From: a virus
Taxonomy: Duplodnaviria; Caudoviricetes
Direction: 5' to 3' (one strand)
Virus record (IMG/VR): IMGVR_UViG_3300044712_001597
Location: 1,687 to 65,686 of that record
DNA length: 64,000 nt
Shown here: piece by piece, positions 1-30,400 of the stretch
Position numbering within the stretch: the stretch's first letter is position 1
How the letters are laid out: each line of letters starts with the position of its first letter
The notes under the pieces: generated by a model
Databases searched by the model: none
Seen by the model: the letters and a program-made list of their open reading frames with translations, nothing else
What the model was told of the DNA's origin: nothing
Made by a program: the position numbers and the translations under genes

Positions 1-8
1 ACAAGTGC

Positions 9-419
9 GTGTTAGAGTCCGCGGAGCGAGGTTATGAAGTCCGCTTCACTCCTCAAGGTCCTAATCCTCGTGCCTGGTCTAAGCATCCAGCCGTCCGCAT
101 GTGGGAGTCTGACATTCCTGCCTTGGTGGCTTACACCCTGGATGTCTGCAAAGAGTGGAAATCTCGCGGCTTCGTTGACAGCTGCGCGGACAAGATCATC
201 CGGTCTTGGCGAGCCTACGCCGCGTCAAAAGGACTTCCGCAAGCCGTCTTTGCCACCGCTCCTTTTCCGTCCTGGATTACCATGGAGCTTTGCTTGTCGC
301 ATCGCTCTAACCTCATCCGCAAAAATTGGTTGTTCTACGCTTCGTTGTGGCCGGGAGTTCCAAATGATCTTCCCTACGTCTGGCCAACTCCTCTCGCTCA
401 TCAATTCCAACCTCGCTAA
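9..419 (+). CDS. Pyrimidine-dimer DNA glycosylase-like protein (MSMEG_6728/DenV-related), 5' truncated
   Basis: Motifs HPAVRMW, EWKSRGF, SHRSNLIRK, LPYVWP; frame probably begins upstream of the window. Confidence 0.75.
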   Translation: MLESAERGYEVRFTPQGPNPRAWSKHPAVRMWESDIPALVAYTLDVCKEWKSRGFVDSCADKIIRSWRAYAASKGLPQAVFATAPFPSWITMELCLSHRSNLIRKNWLFYASLWPGVPNDLPYVWPTPLAHQFQPR

Positions 420-426
420 AATCTCT

Positions 427-924
427 ATGCTCACCGTTGCTCAACTCGCGGACGAAGTCGCCAAGTACGTCGTCGCTCAATCTGAAATTCCTGACGAAAT
501 TGCTTCTCAGATCAGCAAACTTGACGCTTCTCAGCTCGTGGAATTCAATACAGAGTTAGTCCGTAGTTTCACGCGACGTGGAACCGACGTCGTCCAAATT
601 AAAGATCCTCGTGTCGCTGCGCTGGACTACATCCGAGCCGTGTACCACTTGGATGATTCGCAAAGTTTACCTAAGCGCCAAGAGCACGATGTCATCGCGG
701 CCTTTGCTGCGGGAATGCTCGAGTCTCACACTCTCTATTCTTCGTTGCTCTCCCACGGATTCTCTTCGAATTCTGGCGACACGCACTTCAACGCTCTTTA
801 TCATAAGCTTCTACTTGTCAGTCTTAATCTCTCGGAATGTCTTTCTGAGTTTGCTAAACGGCACACGCAGGAAGCCGAGAATCTTAATCACTTCTCTCCT
901 ACCTTCCACCACCAACAAAACTAA
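427..924 (+). CDS. Hypothetical protein
   Basis: ATG at 427 directly after the previous stop; in frame with ORF 34..924. Confidence 0.6.
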   Translation: MLTVAQLADEVAKYVVAQSEIPDEIASQISKLDASQLVEFNTELVRSFTRRGTDVVQIKDPRVAALDYIRAVYHLDDSQSLPKRQEHDVIAAFAAGMLESHTLYSSLLSHGFSSNSGDTHFNALYHKLLLVSLNLSECLSEFAKRHTQEAENLNHFSPTFHHQQN

Positions 925-973
925 GTCGGCGAAAGAAATCGAAATTCGCATCGCCCTGACGGTTCGACAATTT

Positions 974-1360
974 ATGAATCAACACCCTGACCCTGTGGAG
1001 CCGGTGAAAACCGGAAAGATCGTATTTTCGATCAATGGCGTCCGCTTGCCAATCGAAGCGGAGATGATCCCCAAGCTTTTCGTCACGTACATCGCAGCAG
1101 AGCGGGCGGAATACTACGCCGGAGTGGATGCCGCTCGGTGCGACGCTGCCGAAGGAGCAAACGCTTGCTTTGCCAGAGTGTTCCGTGAAGAAGTCAACCA
1201 CGCGCTGCGTGACCGTGACGAGTTGGAAGACTGGCTTGCGAACAATACCAACTGGGCTTCGGAGCGAACGGACGGAATCACGGTCGAGTATTTGTCGCAC
1301 GATACGCATCTGCCAGACACTGCCCAAACCACCACAAGTAATCCTAACCAACAAAACTAA
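974..1360 (+). CDS. Hypothetical protein
   Basis: 3' part of ORF 578..1360; start uncertain; WLANNTNW motif. Confidence 0.55.
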   Translation: MNQHPDPVEPVKTGKIVFSINGVRLPIEAEMIPKLFVTYIAAERAEYYAGVDAARCDAAEGANACFARVFREEVNHALRDRDELEDWLANNTNWASERTDGITVEYLSHDTHLPDTAQTTTSNPNQQN

Positions 1361-1367
1361 ATCCAAC

Positions 1368-1679
1368 ATGACACATATCGCACTGACCCCGTTCGGCGCT
1401 CAGCAACTGCGCGCTCTTCGTATCTCTCAATCCGGAGCCGAAGTCCTTCGCAAGGGAGGAATTCTCTACGCCATCTCGCGCGGACGCGTCTACGACGAAG
1501 AGACAAAGATCGCCTTGTTGAAGCAGTCTGCTCTGCGACAAAGCCACGTCGATGACTGGAGACAAGAAACAGTCAAAGAGCGCTGCGACAGTCCGCAAGC
1601 CTGTCTGCGCGCTCTCGGTTTTCGTCCGGCGCACCGCCCCAATCTTCGCTTCATCGAGTCCTTCACCTGCTCCGAGTAA
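1368..1679 (+). CDS. Hypothetical protein
   Basis: ATG after an AC-rich leader; operon packing. Confidence 0.55.
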   Translation: MTHIALTPFGAQQLRALRISQSGAEVLRKGGILYAISRGRVYDEETKIALLKQSALRQSHVDDWRQETVKERCDSPQACLRALGFRPAHRPNLRFIESFTCSE

Positions 1680-1683
1680 TCTT

Positions 1684-2043
1684 ATGGACGGCGTCATTTC
1701 GATTCTCTTCTTTCTCAAGAGCCATGGTCCTTTTCTGCTGATCGTCGCAGTCATTCTCGTGGCTTTCACGGTCCTGTCTTGCTGGTTTTGGAGCTGGCTG
1801 TCGCAGCGCCGAGTCTGGGTGATGGGCTACAACTCCATTTGCGATCAGATCCCTTTGCTTCAGAAAGGAGACCACGTACTCACTAACCCTCCGCCTCCTT
1901 CTTGGCTCAATCCTGGTCTTCAAACTCGGTTTCGTCAAGGACAACTGGCTTGTTTGCGCGAGATGCAAATCGCAAACACTCGAGAAGAGCAGCGGATCAT
2001 GCGGCTGAAAACGCGGGCTGTGCATCGTCCAGGACGAGGGTAG
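1684..2043 (+). CDS. Hypothetical membrane protein
   Basis: N-terminal hydrophobic segment (FLLIVAVILVAFTVLSCWFW). Confidence 0.55.
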   Translation: MDGVISILFFLKSHGPFLLIVAVILVAFTVLSCWFWSWLSQRRVWVMGYNSICDQIPLLQKGDHVLTNPPPPSWLNPGLQTRFRQGQLACLREMQIANTREEQRIMRLKTRAVHRPGRG

Positions 2044-2052
2044 TTTTCCGCC

Positions 2053-2262
2053 GTGAAGATCGTGCACCATCTTAATCCGCAGTCCAAGCCGCGTACGTGG
2101 CGAAGTGGTATCTATCTTTGCCACTCTTGCGGTAAGTACGTCGAGCGCGAAGCGGAAGAAGGAAAACCTTTGCCCAAGTGGAAAAAGTCATTCTGCACGT
2201 CGACTGGAAAAAACGTACGCCTCTGGTTGAAACTCTCGCACGACCTTCCGCATCGACACTAA
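2053..2262 (+). CDS. Small Cys-containing hypothetical protein
   Basis: CHSC and later C residues; operon packing. Confidence 0.5.
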   Translation: MKIVHHLNPQSKPRTWRSGIYLCHSCGKYVEREAEEGKPLPKWKKSFCTSTGKNVRLWLKLSHDLPHRH

Positions 2263-2269
2263 ACTCTCT

Positions 2270-2674
2270 ATGAAACCCTACCAGCGCCTTCAATACTGGA
2301 TTCAACAGCTATACGTCGTCTCCGTATCAATCACCGTACTCGGAGCGACACAAAAGTGGGGAATCGCCTTGGCTATTCTGATTCCACTCTCCATCTGGCT
2401 GTGGGAGTACAATTCCAAGCCGAACGCGCCATGTGATTTTGAGCGCGAACTTAAGGATACGAATGAACTGCTGCAAAATGTGATTCGAGAGCGAAACAAA
2501 CTTGGGCGCGAAATTACACGCCTTCGCGTCCGCGCCGAGTCGTCGGAGCATGAGAGCGCGATGCTTCGTGGTGAACTACAATCCATCGCGTGCTCAGACG
2601 GCGGCGCGAAATGGCTGCGCGATCTCGCGAGCCGCGCTTTGTCGAACAGCCAGATGAGGAATCACCAGCCATGA
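2270..2674 (+). CDS. Membrane-anchored coiled-coil hypothetical protein
   Basis: Two hydrophobic segments followed by a heptad-rich region. Confidence 0.55.
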   Translation: MKPYQRLQYWIQQLYVVSVSITVLGATQKWGIALAILIPLSIWLWEYNSKPNAPCDFERELKDTNELLQNVIRERNKLGREITRLRVRAESSEHESAMLRGELQSIACSDGGAKWLRDLASRALSNSQMRNHQP

Positions 2675-2774
2675 AAGAGCCCCGCCACGGCCTGCCGCCC
2701 TGTGATCACGATGAATGCCCGCCGACACGCTGCGCCCGGCTGGCTGGTGATTTCTCTCCATCGCCTTTTTCGGC
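2641..2774 (+). repeat. attC-like imperfect inverted repeat 1
   Basis: GTCGAAC-5nt-GATGAGGAATCACCAGCC ... GGCTGGTGATTTCTCTCCATC-GCCTTT-TTCGGC; 14-bp arm with one G:T pair and extrahelical bases; 134 bp long. Confidence 0.55.
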
Positions 2775-2958
2775 GGTGCTCTGTGACATGTCAGGATGCC
2801 ACGAACACGCGACAGGCGAAGTGCAAATCGGCGATGAATACATCCCGCTATGCGAACTGCACCGGAAGTCAGAAATGGAACGGCTTGCTCCAAAGTGGAG
2901 GCCGATGCCGCCACATTCGCCGAACACAAAGGCCAGCGGCCTCCCGAAAAAACCATGA
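2671..2958 (+). CDS. Cys/His-rich hypothetical protein
   Basis: ATGA overlap with the previous gene; CxxxGC...LCxxH. Confidence 0.5.
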   Translation: MKEPRHGLPPCDHDECPPTRCARLAGDFSPSPFSAVLCDMSGCHEHATGEVQIGDEYIPLCELHRKSEMERLAPKWRPMPPHSPNTKASGLPKKP

Positions 2959-3027
2959 GTGATCCTACCGAAACTACATCCCCCGCGCGGGCACGAACCG
3001 GAGGTTCGCTGCATCGCGCTGTTAGAG
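2919..3027 (+). repeat. attC-like imperfect inverted repeat 2
   Basis: GCCGAAC...CAGCGGCCTCC ... GGAGGTTCGCTG...GTTAGAG; 109 bp. Confidence 0.6.
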
Positions 3028-3236
3028 GGCCTGCGTGGTCGGCAAGCAAAGCGGAGGAAGTAATCGCTGGAATCTACCTGATCGCCGCCCTGCTCGCATG
3101 GAACGGCGGCATCATCTGGCTTGCCGTGCTTCTCTTCATCAAGGCCGCGGCGGACACAGTGTGCGCCTTAACATTTGCCGCCATTGAAGTCTGCCACGAA
3201 TCGAAACAGCCCTCTAACGTCCAAGAGGAGCCATGA
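2955..3236 (+). CDS. Hypothetical membrane protein
   Basis: ATGA overlap; two hydrophobic helices. Confidence 0.5.
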   Translation: MSDPTETTSPARARTGGSLHRAVRGPAWSASKAEEVIAGIYLIAALLAWNGGIIWLAVLLFIKAAADTVCALTFAAIEVCHESKQPSNVQEEP

Positions 3237-3300
3237 CCACCCGCAAAACAGACTCCGCAACTTCCAATGACCACCCACGCAACAGACTCCGCGACTTCCA
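3233..3300 (+). repeat. 34-bp tandem duplication
   Basis: ATGACCACCCGCAAAACAGACTCCGCAACTTCCA followed by ATGACCACCCACGCAACAGACTCCGCGACTTCCA. Confidence 0.85.
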
Positions 3301-3310
3301 CTGACCGGGA

Positions 3311-3553
3311 ATGAATATGCCGATTAAGCCGGGAGATTTTTTTCTCCTTCCATTCAAAGGGCCGAAGATAGCGCTGCTCGTTGAAGCCGTGCGCGAGCGC
3401 ACCGTACTTGGTTATGGCCAATGGGATGTTCGACACGTGCACAACGGAAAAATCCTTACATGCTACCTTCCGTCCTGCCACCGCTGTCCGCCGTCAAAGG
3501 CGCGAAAAATCATGCCGTCTCACTCTGGTTGTTCCTCCGTCGCCCGCAAATAA
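3311..3553 (+). CDS. Hypothetical protein
   Basis: ORF in operon context. Confidence 0.4.
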   Translation: MNMPIKPGDFFLLPFKGPKIALLVEAVRERTVLGYGQWDVRHVHNGKILTCYLPSCHRCPPSKARKIMPSHSGCSSVARK

Positions 3554-3566
3554 CTATACCAAAACG

Positions 3567-3818
3567 ATGACAGCTAAAGAACGAGAAGGATACGAACTAA
3601 CAAAGGGAGCAATGATGTGCTTCGGCAAATACTTGTTGCTCGGAATGGCTCTCATCTTCCTTCTCGGGTTAGTGCGAAACTGGCAAGGCTGGGGTGTGGA
3701 TGACTCAGACAAAGACGCATGGAACCGCTCTGGATTGCGAATCCACACCGACGCAAAAACCGGGGTGCAATATCTGAGCGATGGCAAGGGAGGGCTGGTG
3801 CGTCGTGAGTATCGCTAA
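3567..3818 (+). CDS. Membrane protein, DUF6440-like
   Basis: One TM helix and the motif D-x-x-TGVQYL...GGL. Confidence 0.55.
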   Translation: MTAKEREGYELTKGAMMCFGKYLLLGMALIFLLGLVRNWQGWGVDDSDKDAWNRSGLRIHTDAKTGVQYLSDGKGGLVRREYR

Positions 3819-3871
3819 CATCCAAGATGAGGGATCGGCACCCTCAACCAAGCTGCCGAAAACACACTGAT

Positions 3872-4405
3872 ATGAACGCCGCCAGACGTATCTTCATTGG
3901 AGGATCGAAACATGGACAAGTCTTTTCCGCTTTTAGAGAGCCATTTGTCAGAGTTGCGATTCCATCGTTATCGCCTACATTCGAGTTGGAGGTTATGCCT
4001 TGCGTTGAAGATACCTTCACGCTCGAGACGTATCAACTGCGGACCTACGAACTCGCGGGAACTCGTCGCTCTGCTCAATATCTTGTCCTTCAAAGTCTCA
4101 GTGACTCTGAAGCCGCGCGACTTATCGAAGAGTATGAAGCACATAACTCGAGGAGCGAGTCTACTGTGAAAGCCAATACTTTCTTGAGCGTGGCGAGACT
4201 CTTATGGGACTGGCGAGGATGGACTAAGGTTGGAATTCTCGATGCAGTCACTTATCGCGACACGGGTCTCCATTTCTTTCTCAGCAGTTCATGCGTTAAC
4301 TTGTGGAGCGAAAAATCACCGCATCCCGTTTATTCGCCTAGTCTTGTTACCTGGATTTTCTTCATTTTGCTTTGCCTGCGCTTGCAAGTCTGCGCGAAAC
4401 TTTAA
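3872..4405 (+). CDS. Hypothetical protein
   Basis: FIGGSKHG N-terminal motif seen in small phage proteins. Confidence 0.5.
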   Translation: MNAARRIFIGGSKHGQVFSAFREPFVRVAIPSLSPTFELEVMPCVEDTFTLETYQLRTYELAGTRRSAQYLVLQSLSDSEAARLIEEYEAHNSRSESTVKANTFLSVARLLWDWRGWTKVGILDAVTYRDTGLHFFLSSSCVNLWSEKSPHPVYSPSLVTWIFFILLCLRLQVCAKL

Positions 4406-4418
4406 CTCTCGCAACTTA

Positions 4419-5786
4419 GTGATACAACTTCGTCCATACCAGATTGCTGCCGCGAGCAAGTTGTCCGATATCCTTGTCAAGCATCGCTTCGCGGTTGACG
4501 CTTCCGATACTGGAGTCGGAAAAACTTTCACGGCGATTGCCACCGCTCTTGAGTTCGAACCCCATCCTCCGGTGGCCGTCATTTGTAAAGCGAAGGCCGT
4601 GACGAAGTGGATGCAGGCTCTCGCGCAGTTCCCGCAATTGGAAGTCTTGTTCGTCACAAGCTGGGAAAAAGCCAGAAGCAAGAAGAATCCTCACTTCATC
4701 GCGAGCTTTACGTCAAAAGGAAAACTTCGCGGCTTCAACTTGCGACTCTCGCGTCCAACTATCGTAATCTTTGACGAGATTCATTGCGCTGGGGGTCAAT
4801 CAAGCCAAAATGGAGAACTGGTGATCGCCTGCCACCGATGCCCTCAGGCGTGGACGCTGGGTCTATCAGCTACGCTGGCAACAGATCCTCTCCGGATGCG
4901 AGCTCTCGGCTATTGCCTCGGTCTCCATCAACTTCACGACTACTGGAATTGGTGTCGCAGCAACGGCTGTGGAAAAGCTCCCTTTGGCGGTTTGTACTTC
5001 CGCAACAAAGACCGCGAGCGAGTTCTCGGGAAGTTGAACCGCATTCTCTTTGACTCGGAAGATCCCCGAGGAATCCGACTCCGCAAGAAAGAGTTGATGG
5101 ACTGTGGTCAATTTCCTAAGGTTGAAACATTCGTGGAGCTATGGGATGTTTCTCTGCACGCAGCCAAGTGGCTCCAGGAAGCTTTGACCGAAGTCGACAA
5201 AGCGGAAGACGCGGATATGGAAAAGCATGACTGGCAGCCGCATGGCGGAATTCTGGCGATGCGCGATCGCCAACGCTCCGAGCTGTTGAAACTTCCTGCT
5301 CTGCTTGATGAGATTCAAGACCGTTTAGACGAAGGCGAGTCCGTCATTGTGTTCTTGCAGTTTACTCGCTCCTTGCGAGTCGTAGGCGAACAGCTCAGCA
5401 AAGACGGGATTCTATATTCGTTGGTGGCTGGAAACACGCCTCGCTCATCCTCGAAACGCCTTACTGCCCTTCCGGTGGAGGTCTTTCAGCGCAATCAGAC
5501 ACGAGTATGTCTCTGTCAAATCGACGCAGGATCGGACTCAATTGACTTGCACGATGTTCACGGCGGACATCCCCGGCACATGATTGTCTTCCCGACTTAC
5601 AAGGCCGTCACTCTGATCCAAGCTCTTGGACGCGGAGACCGTTTTGGAGCAAAGACGCCCCTTGTCCGCCGAATCATCTACTCGGCTGGCGGTATCGAAG
5701 AGAAAATCGCCCGAGTCGTAGAGCGACGTCTTGAAAATCTGTCCATGCTCTCCGACGGCGAACTCAATGCAGGAGGAATGATATGA
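4419..5786 (+). CDS. Superfamily 2 (SNF2/ResIII-like) helicase
   Basis: Q-motif LRPYQ, Walker A DTGVGKT, DEIH, SAT, motif VI QALGRGDR; GTG start inferred. Confidence 0.9.
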   Translation: MIQLRPYQIAAASKLSDILVKHRFAVDASDTGVGKTFTAIATALEFEPHPPVAVICKAKAVTKWMQALAQFPQLEVLFVTSWEKARSKKNPHFIASFTSKGKLRGFNLRLSRPTIVIFDEIHCAGGQSSQNGELVIACHRCPQAWTLGLSATLATDPLRMRALGYCLGLHQLHDYWNWCRSNGCGKAPFGGLYFRNKDRERVLGKLNRILFDSEDPRGIRLRKKELMDCGQFPKVETFVELWDVSLHAAKWLQEALTEVDKAEDADMEKHDWQPHGGILAMRDRQRSELLKLPALLDEIQDRLDEGESVIVFLQFTRSLRVVGEQLSKDGILYSLVAGNTPRSSSKRLTALPVEVFQRNQTRVCLCQIDAGSDSIDLHDVHGGHPRHMIVFPTYKAVTLIQALGRGDRFGAKTPLVRRIIYSAGGIEEKIARVVERRLENLSMLSDGELNAGGMI

Positions 5787-6103
5787 AGTCCAAGAGACCA
5801 AATGGAACTCGCTGGATTCGATCGGCGCGACGTCTTCAAATCTATGCTCGCGACCGATGGACTTGCGTCTACTGCGAAACACCGGTATTCCGATCAACGG
5901 CTCACTTGCCTAATGCTGCTTCGTTGGATCACATATTTCCTCGGTCTCAAGGCGGAACAAATGAGGCAACGAATCTCGTCACATGCTGCTTTCAATGCAA
6001 CAGCCGTCGAGCTGATTTGTCAGTTGTAGATTTCGCCATGACGTTTCATTTTCCTAAACAAGTTCTACGGCGTGTCAAAAACGCGCTACGCCGAAAAGTA
6101 TAA
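5783..6103 (+). CDS. HNH endonuclease
   Basis: RDRWTCVYC...LDHIFPRSQGG...NLVTCCFQCN. Confidence 0.9.
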   Translation: MKSKRPNGTRWIRSARRLQIYARDRWTCVYCETPVFRSTAHLPNAASLDHIFPRSQGGTNEATNLVTCCFQCNSRRADLSVVDFAMTFHFPKQVLRRVKNALRRKV

Positions 6104-21243: not shown

Positions 21244-21498
21244 GTGGAAGTTAGCTCAAAACTTCTGGCACATCCTTCTCTTCGTGGGAATTCTCGCCAT
21301 CGTCAGCCTGTGGCCCATCCGGAAGTAGTCAAAACGCTTCAACGCGAATTCGTCGGTCGATGCTCTTGCGGTCGGCCGGCGAATGTTCGCATCCGCACGG
21401 TGCTTGAGCGAAAGCAAATGTTCGACGGAAAAGTAGTTCCCATTTGCACCGTGGGTTATCTTCTTTGCGAAGAATGCGCGACTTCGCGATCTCATTGA
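21244..21498 (+). CDS. Hypothetical zinc-ribbon protein
   Basis: CSCG...LCEECA; converges on the giant gene. Confidence 0.4.
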   Translation: MEVSSKLLAHPSLRGNSRHRQPVAHPEVVKTLQREFVGRCSCGRPANVRIRTVLERKQMFDGKVVPICTVGYLLCEECATSRSH

Positions 21499-24400
21499 TG
21501 GCGCGGATTTCGCAGAACCTGCTTGATCATCTCTTCGTATTCTTCGGGAGACGCGTCGGCTTTACGAATTCCGCGATTCAGTAGAATGGTTTCCGCTTTC
21601 TTGCGTTCCTCTATCCAGGACTGACGATTGAAGGACCCGTCCGGATTAGAATAGCGCGGATTGTATCCCGGCATGGCCCGGAACGGCTCTTCTGCGAGTC
21701 CTGACAGAAAACGAGTCATCGAGGATGAGCCAGGCGTGACTTTTATTGGCTCAGATGCAAGATTTACCGCGGACAGGGGAGAAATCACGCCTGACTCGCC
21801 GTCGATCACTTCTGGAATATCAGACCCGACATCTGACAAAGGCATGGCCTGAAATCCTGGGCCTCCTGGCTTTTTTGAGTCTATCAAGCTTTGAAGCTCT
21901 TCGTCAGAGACATTTTCGACTAGAGCGGCAAAAAGTAAATTGGCCGTGACGGATGCCGAGTGGATGTTTGATACTGGAAGTCCAACAGGGTGATTGTTCA
22001 AAGTCAAGCCGTAAGTAATATCGTTAGGGTCGATAATCTTCCACACGTTTCCTTGAGGATCTGTGTGCACGTTGGATTTCGACCAATCTTGACTGCTAGC
22101 CCAATTCACTAAACTTTCTGCAAGATTTTTTTTCGGCGGACTCGTTTTGGTCTTCTTTGGTTTTCCAAAGACTGCCGCGACGGCCTCGTCCAGCGTGTCG
22201 TAGGATTCTCCTTCCTTGATACGGCGACCGATTTCCCAAACCGACCATCCTCCGTTTCGCTTCTCGATGAACGTTTTTCGCTTAGACTTAGGACTATTAG
22301 GATTAAATACCGTGAATTCGTCGATGTTTCCGAGTCCCGAGACCCCTGTAATTTTCAAATCGGGGTATTTCATAAGAAACTCGGCCATGAAATCTGCTGA
22401 GATAGAGCTCTTAGCGGCATCGTGCAGAGTATCTGATTTATGAGGTTTTCCATCCGACGTGCTTGACCCAAACGAAGTATCCTTGTGGGCTTCTGCTTGG
22501 CTCTGAGCGAGAGCAAATACTTGATCCAACGACGGCAACGTCCCAAACACCTTTCCGGCCATCTGAACGTCCCATCCTTTAGAGTCATCTCCGCTCACGT
22601 CGATAGTCTGCGATGGAGAAACTTTCAACTCGAAAGTTAAGGAATCTGCGAATCCATGCAAGTTTTCAACTTGAACATCTGGAGCAATCTTTTTCGCAGC
22701 GTTTATGAAGTCCGCCGTTGTCATTCCCGCAGACAGTTTGGGGCTTTGATTGGCTTCTTTGCTCTGCGGGTCTACCGACTCAGGCGCGTCGAGAGATTTG
22801 AAAGCGATGTCAAATCCTGGACTTGTGCTCTTGTCGAACTCCGGCTCGCTTGCTAAATCTTTCCAGCTTTTCGCACTTGCGATATCTTCAAAAGACTTGG
22901 CGCTAACGATTTCTTTTAGATACTTCAAACTTTTGTTGATTCCTTGTCTATGGTAGACGCCATAATTAAACTCAATTCCATGCGCGTCAAACGAGTGAAT
23001 TTGAATTCCTGTCTTGTCGATGATAAGCGTGTTCGCGATGTCGCTCGGAGTAGTCCACTCGTAAATCAGCGGTGGATCCGTCGGACTAAACGGCTCTGCG
23101 CCGGCCCATCCCCACCAATCTTCTTTCGAAAACGGTTTGAACGCGGATAGTAGCGACTCTGAAGAGATGAGAGTTTTTTGCGACTTTGGTTGCGGCGATT
23201 TTGAAATCATCTCGGACACTGGACGCTCAACTTGCTCTCCGCGTCCTTCAAGGTCCTTGAGCACCGGCAACGCGATCTTGCGCATCTTGCTGGACACAAA
23301 CGGAAGCAGTTCACGGATAGACTTCGCATTGGCTTTGAAGTCAAGCATCTTCTTGATCCAACGATGTCCCTCAGAAGCGCGGTAGTAATTCTGCAGTTTG
23401 TTGAACACCGTGTCCGTATTATGCTGCAAGTCGTAAACGTGGTCGATAGCCACCGCTTTTTGAGACAGCGTCTGCGCGTTTCGCAGCATCAACCAGCCGT
23501 CAGCGATTCCGGCCCACGCGCGTCCGCCATACGCACTGTTCCATCTTCCTTTGGAGAACAAAGTTTGCGCGAAGCTGACAACTTGCGTGCGAGTCCAGCC
23601 GAGTTTGTCGGCAGCTCGGCGCAGCGCAGCGTAACTAGTCTCATAGCTATCGCTTTGTCCCTTAAGCTCGGCATCTTCACCTGGCTTACGGTTTTCGTAT
23701 CCTGCTTTGTAGGCACTATGATACTTGATAAACTGTTGATAGAGCGGATTGTCTTGAATTTCTTTAGGTTGTTTGTTGTCGAGTCCGTGGCGAAACTCTG
23801 CGGCAATCGCGAAATACACTGCGTCCAAAAGCTTTTCTTGAAGATTGGGATAGAATATCCGCTTGGCGTAGTCCAAGTCGTTTTCATACTCTTTGTAGCG
23901 AAGACCGCGAATCCTGTCCGGCGAGTTGACAGACGATGCGAATATCTTATCAAAAGGCATAGTCTCCAAGTACGACAAGACGTAGAAGTCAGCCATTGTC
24001 ACCTTCGGATCATGCGGAAGATCGTATGTCACCGAAGGCATGAACTGCGGCTGGCCTTGGGTAATCACGTCGCGCCGCATTTCGGGGGTAATGCTGACAC
24101 GATGAATCGGGACTTTCTCGCCCGCAACGCTCACCTTGAACTCCATGTTTTCGTCAGGAGCGATGATCATCTCCCACCCAAGATTTTCTGCTTCTTCTTT
24201 GGTCTTAACCGACAGTAAGTCTTCTAAAATGGAGTTTGCTTGCTCAAGACCTTCTCTGGAAGAAGTGTTATCTTCTTCGCGAAAGAACATCGACATTTCA
24301 AATTCTGCTTCGCCGCCGATTACTGAGACTCCATTCCTGTCAACTATGATACTCGCGGGTCTTCCATTCACCGCAAGCTCTCCAATATAGGGCCGGATCT

Positions 24401-27400
24401 TGTCAGAGAATTCCTCTGCTCCAGCAAAAGCCTCCCAGTCCACATCTGTAATGGGGTTAAGTTTTGGAACTTTAAGTTCTCCCAGCTCGATATCACCGCG
24501 CTCCACCTTCCCGCCCCACTGCTTGACGTATTTGGCGATCTCCTTCGGGAGAATCTGGTCGTAGAAGCCCTTCATGCCTTCGCCGCCTACTTTAAGGTCG
24601 AGGCCAGAGTATGTTTGTCGGTTGCTTGGGTTCTCGGATATTTTTGCGGCCAGCTCTTTTCCAATAACGTCTGGCAATTCTTCGATTGTCGCAGTTTTGA
24701 CAATCGCGCTACTGAACGACCTGCCAGATCCCTTTGGCCAGATGAAGAGTTGTTTTGCCGCTTTGTCGTAGTCGATTTTATCGACCTGCTTGCTCAGGTC
24801 ATACCGCTCGGCCTGCGTTTCGCCAGTCGTCCACCCGATCCACTCCTTGCCCGTCTCGACGGCCTCACGGAGGGCGCGCTTGAACATTTGTAATGGCCAG
24901 GTTTTGCGGAATGGCGCGTCAGGAACCTTCGCAGCCTCGTCCATCGTCGCAGGAACCACAGTGCCGAACGGAGAGATGGCCATTTGTAATGTGTCGCGAT
25001 ACCCCTTCTCTCTTCCCACCTGGTGCAGCTTGCTTTGAATTTCTTCAATGAACAGACCGGGCTTTCCGTCGGCGTCTATGCGGTCATTCACGCGGGTCCA
25101 AGCAAGAGCTTTCAGGTCGGAGTAATGAGCTGTGTCAGAAGAAGAGAATGGATATTGGCTCTTTGCGACGCCGCCGATTGCATCCCTGGCGGCCTTCAGA
25201 TAGAAGCGCTTTTTGTCATCGTCAAGAGTTTTCCAGTGTTCCTCATCCGACTTTGAACCTCCGACGTTTGCCAGGGCCTTAGAGCGCTGGTGAATGTCGA
25301 TCTCAATCTGCTCTTCGGTCGCCAGTTTCTGGACCGGCTCGATAGTCGCGCCGAGTTCTTCGACAGTGGCGTTGTTGATTTGCCTAACTGCTCGTCTGGC
25401 ATGATCCTCAGTAAGATACAAGGCGCCTCCCATCTGAATCATGCCGCCCTTCATCACCTTGTAATAAGTGATCGTTCGCGATGACGGTCCAAACCCCGGA
25501 GCCTTCAACACGATTTCGCGGTGGTTATCTCCGCCCGGAAGAGTCCAGTTTGTGTTGCGAGGAAGTTCGTCTTTCCTTTTCTTTGGCTTACGAACAGGCA
25601 CTATTTCATAGCCAGACTCTTCCAGAGACAATCCTTCAACTGCGTCGATTTCATTTATTGCCTCTTGGGGAGACCGGAAAGACGTTGAGTAGACATCCGA
25701 CCCATTCTTCTTGACTCTCCAAACGGTCTCTGTCTCCGAGCTGTCTCCAAGAACGATCTCTGCCAGTTCAACATTTCCCTCATTCTGAAGGTAATCCAGA
25801 ATATCCTGCTTCGTCACGGACTCGCGATCTTGAATCCACGGAATGATGCCAGTCCACTTGAGTTCCTCTTCATTGGTGAACTTGCGCGCAAGGGCCTCTG
25901 CTTGTTGGGCTGTAAACTTCTCTTGCTTCTGCTCTTCGAATCCTTTTCCAAGGCGCGAGTAGAAGCCATTGGCCGTCGGCATGAACTTCGGATAGGCGGA
26001 GGTCGCTTTGAGTTTATTTGGTTTAAGCACAGCGTACTCTTTGCCAACTCCTGGTACTCCACGCGCGACTATTACGTCATGCCCATTCTGTTTTGCGAAC
26101 TCAACTACTCGCTTACCGAGCTCTGCTGGCGATATTATTTTTTCGTCGCTATGCGCAAAGTCGTCCCATAGATCCAACTCGCCTTTTCTACGCTTTCCTG
26201 ATACTCGAATGAGCAACGGATTTTCCGCTTCTAGCGTAGCCAACACAACGTGAGAACCTAGACCCCACGTATCTGTCGTGAGAGACACGGTTTCTGGAAA
26301 AAGGCGCTGCTCGCTAGAAGCGATAATACGAAATCCGTTCTGCTGGATATCACGAGCTCCTTCTGCATTCGTGGTGTGGTACAACTCTTCCCACACAGCC
26401 GGATTTCCAGTTATTTCTCGCGGCATGAATTGCACTCGATCAGTAGTCGGTGAAAGCATCCGTTCTCTCTTAAAAACCAGAATAGAGATATCTCCAGGCT
26501 GTCCGGGTGACGCTTCGTTTTCGTTGCGGTAGGCAATAGAATCGTAGCCGTTTTTAACGAGCTGGTCGATAGTGGCGTCAATACGGTCGTCGAATCCCAA
26601 TTTTTTTATCTCTGCAATTTGAGAGTCAGATAAGGGAGCTACGCTTAACCCGTGAGGATTTCCTGGACGCAGCACGAAGTCGGTGAGCGCCGCGCTGTCA
26701 TCAACATCTCGTGGAATAACCAGCGTTTTTGACAGGTCTGCTCTTGTCTTGTAGACAAATCCTTTTCGGGTTTCGTGCTCATCTGCTAACTCAACTTCGG
26801 CGACATTTCGACCCAAAGCGTCATCAGAAAATTCACCGAGCGAAACAGAAAAAGAAGAAGGAGTATCGTCATACAGATTCCAAATTCTGTTGTAGGCTTG
26901 TTTGAGCGTTTGGCCGAAATGAGCTCCGTGCTGATTGGCCTCGTCAAAAGTCATCGTCCCCGTAATGGGACGTGGTCCACCATGGTACCATGTCATGCCG
27001 TTCAATATTCGAGCGACTTCCGTCGGAGATTGATTCTTCGCGATTTCAAACAAATCGCTAAATTGCGTTACATTTTTTGCTCTTTGTCGAGCTACAAAAT
27101 CTCCAGGCATGAATTGCGGTTGGCCGGAGTCGGGGCGGGAAAGTAGATTCTCTGCTTCATTGATGACTTGGTCTACGATGCTCAAGTCATCTCGTCCACC
27201 CCACTCGGAATACTGCTCTTTGATACCACGAGCGGCTTCGTCAAGACGCTCAAGAAACTCTGGCGAGAAATACCCTTCCGGCGCGTCCTGCGAGATGAAC
27301 TGCAGCTCGTCGATCATATCCTGCGAAGTTAAGTCATCGCCGTCGTTGTAGCGATCAAATAAGTCGGTGAGACGTTCGCGAGTGTAGTCTTGACTTTCGC

Positions 27401-30400
27401 CTGGCATGAACTTTGGTCCCCCCGGAGAGTCGTAAACGGCGGTCATTCCGTTTTCGATGGCCGTATCTTCAATTTCTTTGCGCTGCTTTCGAGTAGGACT
27501 TCCTTCGTAGTAAATTGTGTCCCCATACGTCTGAACCCGGACATATCCCGCGGCCATGACATCCTCATAGTCCACCCGCCGCATATTAACATACTCTTCC
27601 GGAAACACGTCAATATGATTGGACACGTTGATCCACTCTAAGTTTTTTCCTAACCAAGCAGCGCCGCGGACTCTATACGAATTGGAAATCTTTTGCTTCG
27701 ACATAAAGCTTTTCGCGAGCTTAATACGCTCAGGAGTAGAGTCGTTCTCTGAAGCGGGCATGAAGTTGATTGTCATCTTGCCGTAGTCCACTGGAATCTT
27801 CTCAGCGGAGGAAATCTCAAAGGCGTTGATGCGATCCATGCGCGCGGACATGATCAACCGATCAGCCGAGTCTTGCCCTCGTTTAACTGGCAGACGACTG
27901 CGGTCTGGGTTGAGACCCTCGGTGTCTTTTGTGAAAAGGTTGAAGAAATCGTTGACGATATTCTTCTTCTGGAGCGCGATTGCTGGGTCCGTGTCCAGTC
28001 CAACTGCGCCTTTTTCGCCAGCTTGGTGATTGACGAGAACTCTATGCACGTCAGTCCAAAACTTCGCTTTGTCACGTCCCCACAGATTGAGCCGCTCGGG
28101 CTTTTTCTCGCTCCATAGATTCAGTTTGTCGAACATACGGCTAACCGAGATGGTTGTAGCCAAGAAGTTTCCGTCCTTGCTGAAGTGAAAGCCGATAGGA
28201 ACCACATCGCGAATCCGCGGAGCAAGAGATTTATATTTTCCCGCCTTCAAGGCCGCTTGATACTCCATCACGATGCGAGTCCCGTCTTGTTTTTGGAGCA
28301 CAGTGTTGAACGAGCGGATTCGCCGCTTCAATGAAGGAGATACGATGTCGTTGGACAGCGCATCGATGGCTGCGAGCTGAGAAGGAGTAAGAATTCCGCG
28401 GTAGACTCCGTTTCCAACGTCTTGAAAGCGATTTGGAGTTCCGTCATTCGGAGCCCGGTCAACGGCTTCTCGAATAAGCTTTCCACGCAGCCGAGCTCGC
28501 GACTTTACTTCTTTCGCAGTAAGCTGAATCGGAGTTCCGTCTACGTTACGCTTGATGACAGTGTCTGTAGAAACCTTTGCGCCCTCCGGCAGGTTAGACA
28601 TATCGATCGTGGGCGGCAAAGTCATTTCTCGTCCATTCTCGTCAACCAGACGTCCATTCTGGACGCGATATTCCTGGACCAGACGAGCAGCAGCTTGCTC
28701 CAGATCCGGAGTCACTTTGATTTCTCTCAGCGTCACGCCGTCCTTATCACGAATGACGATGGCGATTTCTGTGCTCAAGACTTCAGACGTGTCTTTGTAC
28801 TTCTCTTGCAGAACTCGGTTAGTGAGAAGCTCGGGAATGGATACTTCTGGTTGACGAGCATCTGAAGATGACGCCGCCTCGATCAAGGCTCCGTTCAACG
28901 AGCGAACGCTCCGCTCGAACTGCCGGTAGAGCGCCAGCATCTGAGGCGTGAGGGTGAGTCCAAGAATATCTGAGAATCTTCCAGCTTCATCAAAAAGACC
29001 CGTGGACTGCAACGCGCTCTTAAGCACCTGCACTGCGCGGTTTTTCGATCCGACGTTCACCCAGTCAGCGATTGCTTGTCCCGGAGAATCGAGGGCATCT
29101 CGCAGCGAGAATGCGTCGTTATTGGAAAACCCGGAAAGCTCAGCAAGAATCTCTTCACGAATGTAGGCGCGCATGTTTTCTTGAGAGCCCATGGAGTTCT
29201 TCCAGGCGGCAGGATTCGCCATGTGCGCGGCGTACACTTCGGCCGCGTAGTCCAGTTGATCATCTGAGATAATTCCCGGAGACTGCTGAGAAACAGTGCC
29301 GTCAACATTTTGATTGTAGCGGCCGAACAGTTGATCTCGGAGCGGAGTGAGACGATCTTGAACTTCTTTGAACTGCAGCAAATTGTGAAAGATTTCGTGG
29401 TGCAGAACCCGGCGCATATCTCCAAAAGAGTTGCGTGAAGACAGGATAGCATCCAGATTAACGAACATCGAAGGAATCTCAAGATTCTGCGGGCGCAAAG
29501 CTGGATCCACGTTGGCATACGAACGCTTTGAAAATGCAGCTCCGCGAGTTTGAGAAAGCTCGTTCGCCGTGTATTGCACCTTGTCAACCAATTGGCGAGC
29601 GAGTTGAAGCATCGCTTTCTCGGAGTCCGAAAGGGAAGCATCGTTTTTCGCCCCAAGATTGGCGATGATTGACTCGGCCTCGGTGAGCTTAGAACCGTAG
29701 AGTTCACGAACAAAGTCTATGGCGTTCTCAGCGTTGAGAAGGCGGATGTTCATGTTGGATCCTATACCCGAGTCAGAAGCCAACGTTCCGGCTTTCTCAA
29801 AGGCGTCAAGCACGATCAACGAGTAAGCTCGGCGCGTCGCAGCGATGTCCTCTGGTTTGCTTGAGGATAGCACTTCCCGACGAGCTCGCAGCGACCTGAT
29901 CTTGTCGTCAAGATCGGCGTCGAGAATTCCTTGCTCGGTATTCGACTGCTGTTTGGCGATGGCTTGCGAGAGTTTCGCGTCAATTTGATTGACAGCTTCT
30001 TCCGGGTTGCTGAGACGATCAATGGCCGCAAGCGTTTCTGGGCTTGCAGACTTACGGAACCGCTCGACGTCTGCGTCGTCATCCCGCTGGCGATCACGCG
30101 CGTCAATCTCAAGAGCCGTATCCAACTTTTGGCGGAAAGAAGTTTCAGGATCAAGCGCGACCTCTGCTTTTCGAGCAAGATCGGCTCCCATGGACACACC
30201 GATGCCATATCCCGAGCCAGCTTGGCGCGCGAGGTCTTCAGCATTCTCAATGTCCGGAAGCGCGAGCATGACGCCAAGCACTGCGCCATTCACTCCACTC
30301 TTGTTCAAGGCCCCCGACTGACGAATCACCCAGTCAACAGTTCGCGCGCGGTTGCGTCCGCGAGAACTTCTCTGAACTCGGCGAGCAGACTCTTCTGCGA

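Follow-up and report, generated by a model that had tools for sequence, protein, structure and literature searches.

Integrons are usually viewed as bacterial gene-capture devices whose cassettes are read from one promoter beside the integrase. Their recombination sites, attC, are imperfect inverted repeats of 57-141 bp that fold as hairpins, with AAC/GTT R boxes, an unpaired central spacer, a terminal structure that varies, and extrahelical bases, one of them a conserved T (PMC5027507). An integron integrase recombines the site as a folded single strand. The spacer typically spans about 5-6 nt per arm, and two or three extrahelical bases face the AAC triplet in the recombined bottom strand, the far one being the conserved T, about a 6-bp stem away from the other. 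In the canonical model a promoterless gene lies on the attC top strand, and insertion of the bottom strand permits its expression from the cassette promoter Pc (PMC5027507). Translational coupling from the recombination site has been described in class 1 integrons for ORF-11, ORF-17/18 and open reading frames (ORFs) embedded in attC (PMC8876359). Phages, too, are known to carry attC clusters without an integron integrase (CALINs): a survey of 10,705 NCBI phage genomes with IntegronFinder counted 17 of them, in phages that were either cultured or uncharacterised (Qi et al. 2023, Front Microbiol, PMC9892861), and IntI1 was able to recombine phage attCs in 5 of 6 cases (PMC9892861). Here we analyze a 64-kb window (64,000 nt; positions below are window positions) that spans bases 1687-65686 of a 65,686-bp IMG/VR phage record rated 100% complete, and in particular two attC-like hairpins at 2638-2777 (attC-1) and 2916-3030 (attC-2) and a probable decayed site at 3209, which fall in a run of small plus-strand ORFs upstream of a helicase gene. 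From sequence comparisons, we consider it likely that these are integron attC sites, that the cargo domain of g2 and the g3 gene are cassettes in an early operon of the phage (a CALIN), and that the site family is shared with large sedentary integrons in the order of a Chthoniobacterales metagenome-assembled genome (MAG) and with viral arrays that carry intI.

A hairpin family with attC architecture

The sites were called with a covariance model, R1, built from 24 related hairpins of other contigs, none of them from the window. The seeds were chosen by AAC/GTT anchors and a duplex-energy filter, and represent only the strong subset of anchored matches; anchored inverted repeats are not enriched overall (2.0 versus 1.6 per 1000 pairs), and a loose anchored detector gave 237 matches against 160 in shuffled sequence. 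A sliding duplex scan was dropped as a detector after it returned many strong chance peaks in GC-rich loci. On the two strands of the 64-kb window R1 matched exactly two places, attC-1 and attC-2 (Table 1), and with filters off these were the only matches below E=1 in positions 1-6000. Across 52 loci R1 gave 89 matches at E<=0.01, all on the gene-sense strand of their own array.

In the alignment of the 24 elements, an internal loop separates an R stem of 8 bp from an L stem of 12 bp, the latter bulged twice on its 3' arm. Paired cells make up 87.4% of this structure versus 69.7% in shuffles (reached by 0 of 500), slid controls stay at or below 44%, and 15 of 20 pairs show compensatory change. 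Each bulge is a single base, with 5 bp between the two; the first is nearly always T, and the second can be C, G or A. The near bulged base is often C in the family, versus "usually G" in the literature. The central spacer measures 7 nt on the left and 6 nt on the right, both across the family and in the two window sites, and the family spacing equals the attC primer consensus exactly (1+5+1+3+6+7). AAC/GTT boxes, an unpaired spacer and two bulges on the arm opposite AAC together give these hairpins the architecture of attC. Both triplets occur in 78 of 80 listed elements, the seeds having been picked with these anchors. In 20 of 27 elements the plus-strand 3' arm aligns in register with attC primer TCSGCTKGARCGAMTTGTTAGVC (12-19 of 23 positions; 15 and 16 for the window sites), compared with a mean of 13.6 for the best match anywhere in 110-nt null windows. 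The left arm, read as its complement, matches the partner attC primer (both primer sequences are those of PMC10963911 and PMC2669170). Against attC primer HS286, attC-2 matches 16 of 23 positions in register.

Contigs with unrelated sequence on both sides of the element nevertheless carry family members that are 86-99% identical. The closest comparisons for attC-1, again with unrelated flanks, are locus L033 (85.6% identity over 139 nt) and locus L060 (88.5% over 96 nt). Locus L029 packs five elements into 1.15 kb, and their right-arm nucleotides are conserved irrespective of the reading frame used; the arms are therefore nucleic-acid elements. Within the same locus, two near-identical attCs at 4161-4611 each hold an 18-codon mini-ORF (MNNTTNAPAGSLQRLVRR) whose stop overlaps the following cargo start, and in its last element the same right-arm nucleotides code for the first residues of an ORF that resembles a cytosine methyltransferase by visible motifs only.

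Of the two inverted repeats with attC geometry reported in the first-pass annotation, both are recovered by R1 and the first also by an inverted-repeat search, which found 16-nt arms, 69 nt apart, complementary at 15 of 16 positions (94%); the second does not emerge from a single-sequence fold (see below). The core words reported there are present, except that the right core of attC-1 lacks the G of GTT: its boxes are GTCGAAC/TTTCGGC, with AAC present and TTT in place of GTT. The R1 alignment gives attC-1 one bulge plus an insertion. The boxes of attC-2, GCCGAAC/GTTAGAG, hold both triplets and agree with the RYYYAAC/GTTRRRY consensus at 6 of 7 positions each, and its duplex energy lies in the top 0.1% of 7320 positions.

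The flanks of neighboring sites pair across the cargo. Between the 7 nt after GTT and the 7 nt before the next AAC, mean complementarity was 5.49 of 7 in 59 consecutive pairs (35 at 6/7 or better, 17 at 7/7). Within hairpins the flanks agreed at 3.2 of 7, with 0 of 78 at 7/7, compared with a null of 2.79 and 0.5% at 7/7. Crossover by an integrase at the AAC/GTT triplets would produce such pairing across the cargo. In the window, AGAGGGC and GCCCTCT at the two ends of the g3 cargo are complementary at 7/7 (10/10 including the triplets). For the g2 cargo, CGGCGGT (2771-2777) and TTCGCCG (2916-2922) agree at 5/7, compared with 5/8 (boxes plus triplets, by eye) for the left box of attC-1 itself. 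The cassette-wise core matching proposed earlier stands in full for g3 and as a family rule over the 59 pairs, and in part for g2. Short complementary words and the 13-mer common to the half-sites (3 matches versus 2.18 expected) are, alone, within chance, so the case rests on comparison with other sequences.

Such comparison, which the first-pass annotation had proposed for cassette content, found the g2 cargo in the array of locus L021 (the same record as L062, in opposite orientation) between the flanks CGGCGGT and TCCGCCG, behind a different attC interior, and the interior of attC-1 elsewhere precedes unrelated cargo. The g2 cargo occurs without the leader in L020 and L021, and the leader occurs without that cargo in 40 loci. 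Taken together, structure, sequence, flank pairing, and the presence of the same cargo and the same interior in different contexts show that the window sites are homologues of attC in a cassette arrangement.

The modularity extends to the g2 protein. It consists of a leader encoded by attC-1 (residues 1 to ~33) fused to a Cys/His-rich cargo domain (residues ~35-87, nt ~2773-2927), so the prediction that ORFs reading through the right arm would give fusion proteins was borne out. Among 23 database relatives, 19 share only the C-terminal Cys/His-rich domain and have unrelated N-termini, and four share only the first ~32 residues, followed by unrelated sequence; the module boundaries coincide with the ends of the hairpin elements. 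Divergence of the cargo from L020 and L021 is third-position biased in the plus frame. C38, C43, C61 and H64 are invariant in the 19 relatives of the cargo domain, which carries the motif ATGE.Q.GDEYIPLCELHR; it is probably a zinc-binding mini-domain.

A search with the leader returned 11 viral and 27 metagenomic loci. In the form M-x(2-4)-LPPCDHDECPP[TS]xC it stands at the N-terminus of at least 25 different proteins, a NUDIX hydrolase and an HU/IHF protein among them. Among distant copies its nucleotides vary at third codon positions only, which points to selection on the peptide itself. The leader matched neither a Pfam nor a PHROG family, and no CDHDEC leader occurs in the two host integron stretches examined. 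A minus-strand reading of this region was rejected on inspection by hand: the synonymous choice between GAT and GAC introduces a stop into the one compatible minus frame, both in the window and in L022. As a separate observation, M..LPPCDHDECPP[TS][RH]C (window 2671-2770; loci L022-L061) has C-x-H-x2-C-x4-C spacing and resembles a small zinc knuckle. The stems of the leader elements end in ..YRAAC / GTTYR.., with single-base bulges always on the 3' arm. In 16 of 25 distinct leader elements the sequence around the start codon pairs, at -31 to -52 kcal/mol, with a segment of the same element that lies 50-110 nt farther downstream, and pairing with the own downstream sequence averages -29.4 kcal/mol versus -22.8 with that of other elements (0 of 10,000 permutations as low).

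A third site, at 3209-3300, is probably a decayed attC. Its R' box and Shine-Dalgarno (SD) spacer (3209-3232) are followed directly by a 34-nt tandem duplication (3233-3266 and 3267-3300, 88% identical), and the right arm is missing; the duplication has the appearance of a scar left by its loss. Weak evidence for an intact counterpart comes from a 217-nt contig of run X1, the probable source sample, where the interior at 3223-3276 is flanked on one side by an intact R' box and its spacer and on the other by a right arm. Together with the TTT of attC-1, this truncated site suggests attC decay in this genome. The left halves noted earlier at 3212 and 3813 both exist as sequence, and the 3209 box is validated by its 7/7 complementarity; neither scores as attC by R1, which reported no match for the box at 3209 and only 5.6 bits (E 3.2) for the half-site region 3810-3994.

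Upstream of attC-1, CTG+CGACAAAG at 1533-1543 places 8 nt after CTG that are the exact complement of the flank preceding the attC-1 AAC (2637-2644), and R1 has a very weak match at 1484-1526 (5.5 bits). A degenerate attC may lie near 1533, which would make 1536-2644 (g0d, g0e and g1) one old cassette; chance is also possible. A general search for a partner of the left flank of attC-1 was uninformative, with 238 matches versus 226 expected.

Integrases, host integrons and gene orientation

The absence of an integrase, noted at first pass for the window, extends to the whole 65,686-bp phage record, in which searches with PF00589 and TIGR02249 found no tyrosine recombinase or integron integrase. 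With two plus-strand R1 matches 138 nt apart and no intI, the window array is a CALIN, an assignment made with R1 and not with IntegronFinder. An adjoining intI, as in a complete integron, is present in the related records G002 and G005, where ORFs next to the arrays score 280.7 and 293.1 bits, respectively, with TIGR02249 (cut-off 265). All R1 matches of each of these two records lie in one co-oriented array. No integron integrase was found in the window phage (G000), G006 or G007. Among relatives located through the helicase, G006 has five R1 matches and G007, a complete record with terminal repeats, has one.

The same family occurs in bacteria. A contig of the Chthoniobacterales MAG G008 carries a leader 92% identical in sequence, and this MAG has 11 R1 matches and two IntI at 417 and 399 bits. 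R1 matches at E<=1e-5 occur in 52 of 101 genomes of its order, and two 20-kb chromosomal stretches in G053 and G064 hold 30 and 28 matches. The host intI lies downstream of the array on the strand of the R1 matches, which is the canonical intI/attC polarity, and IntI adjoins the elements in G002, G005, G008, G013, G028 and G053. From these sequence matches the attC family tentatively links the phage to a host of the order Chthoniobacterales. As side observations, the integrons at ~615-735 kb of G053:C4 and ~2102-2142 kb of G064:C1 are very large; that of G053 has about one 132-nt attC per 0.4-1 kb over ~120 kb and ends at intI, and the cargo of these large host integrons comprises many toxin-antitoxin families and includes an insertion sequence (IS).

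The bottom strand of an attC is defined by the bulged bases opposite the AAC triplet (PMC5027507). Since the bulges oppose AAC on the plus strand, the gene-sense strand here is the attC bottom strand, in agreement with the intI polarity of the six genomes named above. In viral arrays, a plus-strand ORF fills at least 90% of the cargo in 45 of 61 cases, versus 1 of 56 in host chromosomal arrays; minus-strand ORFs do so in 17 of 61 and 17 of 56. In viral arrays, 59 plus-strand ORFs yield six Pfam families and 58 minus-strand ORFs none; host arrays show two on the plus strand, both from an IS, and 19 on the minus strand. A plus-strand start within attC that reads beyond the right box is found in 58 of 81 viral-array sites (50 abutting a stop) versus 7 of 58 host sites. 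Viral-array genes, like g2 and g3 of the window, thus lie on the attC bottom strand, whereas those of host arrays have the canonical top-strand orientation. The attC appears to supply the viral genes with a ribosome-binding site, a start codon and often the conserved LPPCDHDECPP leader. The start codons at 2671, 2955 and 3233, placed inside the elements at first pass, are indeed there, all in ATGA overlaps. Separately, the 3,033-nt metagenome contig L051 has five R1 matches, one leader-type attC, and the longer ORFs on the minus (top) strand in 4 of 4 cassettes; this exception may mean that both cassette polarities coexist.

Proposed mechanism and rival explanations

We propose that IntI from the host or from a co-infecting phage inserted or exchanged the cassettes, acting on the folded plus strand, which has bottom-strand geometry. 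The SD sequence would come from the unpaired spacer, and the start codon, overlapping the preceding stop as ATGA, from the left arm. In mRNA the attC hairpin would mask the start codon; a ribosome ending one cassette at ATGA would melt the hairpin, restart inside attC and read across the right arm into the next cargo, giving leader-cargo fusions such as g2. The first-pass annotation had named as diversifier either a host integron integrase or hairpin-mediated single-stranded DNA recombination without IntI. The attC identity required by the former is supported, and we infer the enzyme itself from the sites; the latter we judge unnecessary. More broadly, and here we are evenly divided, phages of soil and freshwater bacteria may keep their own pool of reverse-sense cassettes, with the gene on the bottom strand, attC giving the SD and start and, in one subfamily, a CxHxxCx4C leader fused to cargo that includes NUDIX, HU and methyltransferase-type proteins. 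The arrays would be read as early operons in the direction of intI, where a co-oriented copy exists, and host or phage IntI would swap cassettes between phages through the attC family of the host chromosomal integron.

The attC interpretation is supported by the covariation, the R1 matches at these coordinates, the primer register, the flank pairing, the adjoining integrases and the host integrons of the same type. Several points weigh against it. R1 is a custom-built model with rough E-values; since its seeds were picked with AAC/GTT anchors, triplet invariance in the seed is circular, and 8 of the 24 seeds share the leader loop with attC-1, inflating its score. An unconstrained single-sequence DNA fold does not contain attC-2 as a single hairpin and gives two small local stems (z -1.9 and -1.5); z-scores of such folds were weak for both elements and for the leader regions, and we judged the folds non-diagnostic. 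With TTT for GTT in attC-1 and a poorly paired R stem in attC-2, both sites may be inactive relics. No recombination joint was found in two short contigs from one public run with this DNA, a search that supports neither excision nor its absence. R1 had no match at E<=0.01 in 10 further helicase relatives, each of which has 4.9 kb or more of upstream DNA. The viral status of G002 and G005 is that of their IMG/VR and CheckV labels, and the host link comes from one 7-kb MAG contig, with one order scanned. Bottom-strand genes contradict the canonical prediction of expression from Pc (PMC5027507), and conservation at the protein level of a peptide in the variable loop is no known property of attC.

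One rival explanation is that the elements act only in mRNA, masking the ribosome-binding site and start and coupling translation, or serving RNase III-type processing, with a convergent likeness to attC. The SD and start within the hairpin, the ATGA overlaps at 2671, 2955 and 3233, the abutting stop at 50 of 58 in-element starts, and the pairing of start regions with their own downstream sequence (-29.4 versus -22.8 kcal/mol, 0/10,000) are all as expected of such elements. The sense strand is also slightly more stable than the antisense (-37.3 versus -35.4, Wilcoxon p=0.004), and attC stem-loops and their short ORFs are known to modulate translation (PMC8876359). An mRNA element does not, however, explain why flanks pair across the cargo instead of within the hairpin, why integron integrases adjoin homologous arrays, why the same element fills host chromosomal integrons with genes on the other strand, or why both arms match attC primers in register, and there was no Rfam match in window positions 1-22000. 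We consider an RNA-only role improbable; a function in RNA is more plausibly an additional one, and the attC explanation includes it. The integrases that adjoin the elements in G002, G005, G008, G013, G028 and G053 likewise argue against selfish palindromic repeats, similar to miniature inverted-repeat transposable elements or repetitive extragenic palindromes, that transposed into intergenic sites of the phage and have no relation to integrons. A unit of ~100-140 nt with terminal inverted repeats, 86-99% identical across unrelated flanks and present in several copies per contig, is what such repeats would look like, but no transposase is associated with the elements, the copies of a record all lie in one co-oriented array, and complementarity between neighboring flanks across the cargo is unexpected for a unit with its own terminal repeats. 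This origin is very improbable. Finally, inverted repeats and short complementary words might arise by chance in GC-rich coding DNA. By our own estimate, 7-nt and 10-nt complements are individually expected in 1.8 kb; the half-site 13-mer is not enriched, a generous duplex scan yields many peaks at z<=-2.8 in any locus, and the whole-element fold z-scores are weak. The externally trained R1, however, matches only two places in 128 kb of searched strand, covariation extends across 24 elements, and the cassette rule holds family-wide; these three results refute chance, to which we give almost no weight.

Phage context and relation to known systems

The window phage encodes virion proteins, a family-A-type DNA polymerase, an HNH endonuclease, a pyrimidine-dimer glycosylase-like protein and a superfamily 2 (SF2) helicase; the sole indication of a ThyX thymidylate synthase is a short DNA match to cyanophage genes. 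We found no tRNA genes in it, no close DNA relative among 50,697 phage records, and no Rfam family in window positions 1-22000. Elsewhere in the window, one minus-strand ORF at 21492-31844 spans 3,450 amino acids.

The run of small genes (Table 1) has ATGA overlaps at three junctions. No Pfam or PHROG family matches g1-g4 or g6, and g5 matches phrog_14094 (function unknown). The C-terminus of g1 (..SNSQMRNHQP*) is encoded by attC-1 sequence, from the R' box over the spacer to the left arm, its stop overlapping the next start, and its few homologues in the database search each match only portions of it. The g6 call is uncertain: two long plus-strand ORFs, 3827-4405 and 3912-4169, overlap in different frames, and the 85-residue ORF of this pair has a strong GGAGGA site with an arginine/serine/leucine-rich product. 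Relatives were located through the conserved helicase by alignment search, a single-protein scan with the helicase having given nothing. No homologues of g1-g6 adjoin the helicase in 18 related loci, and none of g1 or g3-g6 occurs in any of 65 loci. In the helicase relative L007 (G006; 546-2922 and 5248-5921), homologues of the window ORFs at 1128-2043 directly precede the helicase, five attCs lie farther upstream, and the 2.3 kb that hold g0e-g6 in the window are missing from the corresponding position.

Table 1. Sites, cassettes and genes of the small-gene run (window positions)
Feature	Position	Strand	Description
g1	2270-2674	+	134-aa ORF upstream of attC-1
attC-1	2638-2777	+	R1 match, 140 nt, 41 bits, E 6.5e-8; bottom-strand geometry on + strand
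attC-1 R' box	2641-2647	+	GTCGAAC
attC-1 spacer	after R' box	+	purine-rich, holds SD (AGCCAGATGAGG)
attC-1 left arm	2656-2671	+	contains ATG 2671
attC-1 loop	between arms	+	codes for leader MKEPRHGLPPCDHDECPPTRC
attC-1 right arm	2741-2756	+	inverted-repeat partner of 2656-2671
attC-1 R'' box	2768-2774	+	TTTCGGC; G of conserved GTT replaced by T
g2	2671-2958	+	95 aa, attC-1-encoded leader plus cargo domain
Cassette cargo 1 (g2 domain)	2771-2922	+	bounded by CGGCGGT after attC-1 R'' and TTCGCCG before attC-2 AAC
attC-2	2916-3030	+	R1 match, 115 nt, 25.3 bits, E 4.8e-4
attC-2 R' box	2919-2925	+	GCCGAAC
attC-2 spacer	after R' box	+	ACAAAGG
attC-2 left arm	2933-2944	+	CCAGCGGCCTCC
attC-2 loop	between arms	+	g3 start ATG 2955 (ATGA)
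attC-2 right arm	3001-3015	+	bulged T3006 and C3012
attC-2 R'' box	3021-3027	+	GTTAGAG
g3	2955-3236	+	93-aa membrane-like ORF, starts within attC-2, ends ..PSNVQEEP* in next R' box region; no family match in Pfam/PHROG searches
Cassette cargo 2 (g3)	3024-3215	+	bounded by AGAGGGC (3024-3030) and exact complement GCCCTCT (3209-3215)
Decayed attC-3 (probable)	3209-3300	+	R' box GCCCTCTAAC 3209-3218, SD spacer (GTCCAAGAGGAG), ATGA at 3233
Tiny ORF	from 3233	+	23 codons, from tandem duplication
g4	3311-3553	+	small ORF
g5	3615-3818	+	small ORF
R'-like half-site	3813-3835	+	CGCTAAC plus spacer ATCCAAGATGAGG at g5/g6 junction; 3813 box unvalidated
g6	up to 4405	+	small ORF, gene call uncertain
SF2 helicase	4419-5786	+	455 aa, conserved phage gene used to locate relatives

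These data suggest that phages shuffle small early genes through integron sites, among them methyltransferases and other likely counter-defence functions. The phage cassette differs in design, with the gene on the other strand and a recombination site that doubles as translation start and protein tag. If confirmed, this would explain in concrete mechanistic terms why early regions of phages show their well-known mosaicism, and would link the cassette pools of phage and host in Verrucomicrobia-type soil bacteria. It would also supply natural attC sites embedded in coding sequence, relevant to attC-based engineering, and searching metagenomes with an attC model and then reading the bottom strand offers a practical route for mining phage accessory genes.

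Conserved structured units between small early phage genes are familiar from the T4-type promoter early stem-loop (PeSL) cassettes and the early RNase III hairpins of T7; PeSL units are thought to favor module shuffling, and the T7 hairpins serve mRNA processing. Neither is known to have AAC/GTT core boxes, cassette-wise flank complementarity or a link to a tyrosine recombinase, and their likeness to the window attCs is a functional analogy only. Closer are the published phage CALINs, which are likewise attC clusters without intI in phage genomes, including virulent ones, and carry DNA methyltransferases (PMC9892861); arrays related to that of the window carry two N6_N4_Mtase, Dam and MT-A70. 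Our phages are instead uncultivated and ~40-66 kb in size, with sites called by R1. Phage CALINs as such are already published; what is new is the placement of viral-array genes on the bottom strand and the ribosome-binding site, start and leader supplied by attC. A literature search that took in passages of PMC9892861 turned up no account of genes on the bottom strand, of starts carried by attC or of the leader peptide.

The sedentary chromosomal integrons of G053 and G064 have the same attC family and canonical intI/attC polarity, and their cassettes are typical in size and content, including ParE, YafQ and PIN toxins. They differ from the viral arrays and the window in carrying their genes on the attC top strand, with far fewer plus-strand starts inside attC (7/58 versus 58/81). 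The nearest parallel for those starts is found in the short ORFs of class 1 integrons, which have their own SD, restart ribosomes that end the upstream cassette, melt the stem-loop and feed the next cassette (PMC8876359), much as we propose here, and fusions to whose N-terminus are known (PMC8876359). Those ORFs lie on the top strand and the sequence of their peptide is of little importance (PMC8876359), whereas the attC ORFs described here lie on the bottom strand, occur in most viral-array sites and, in one subfamily, encode a peptide conserved over at least 25 cargoes.

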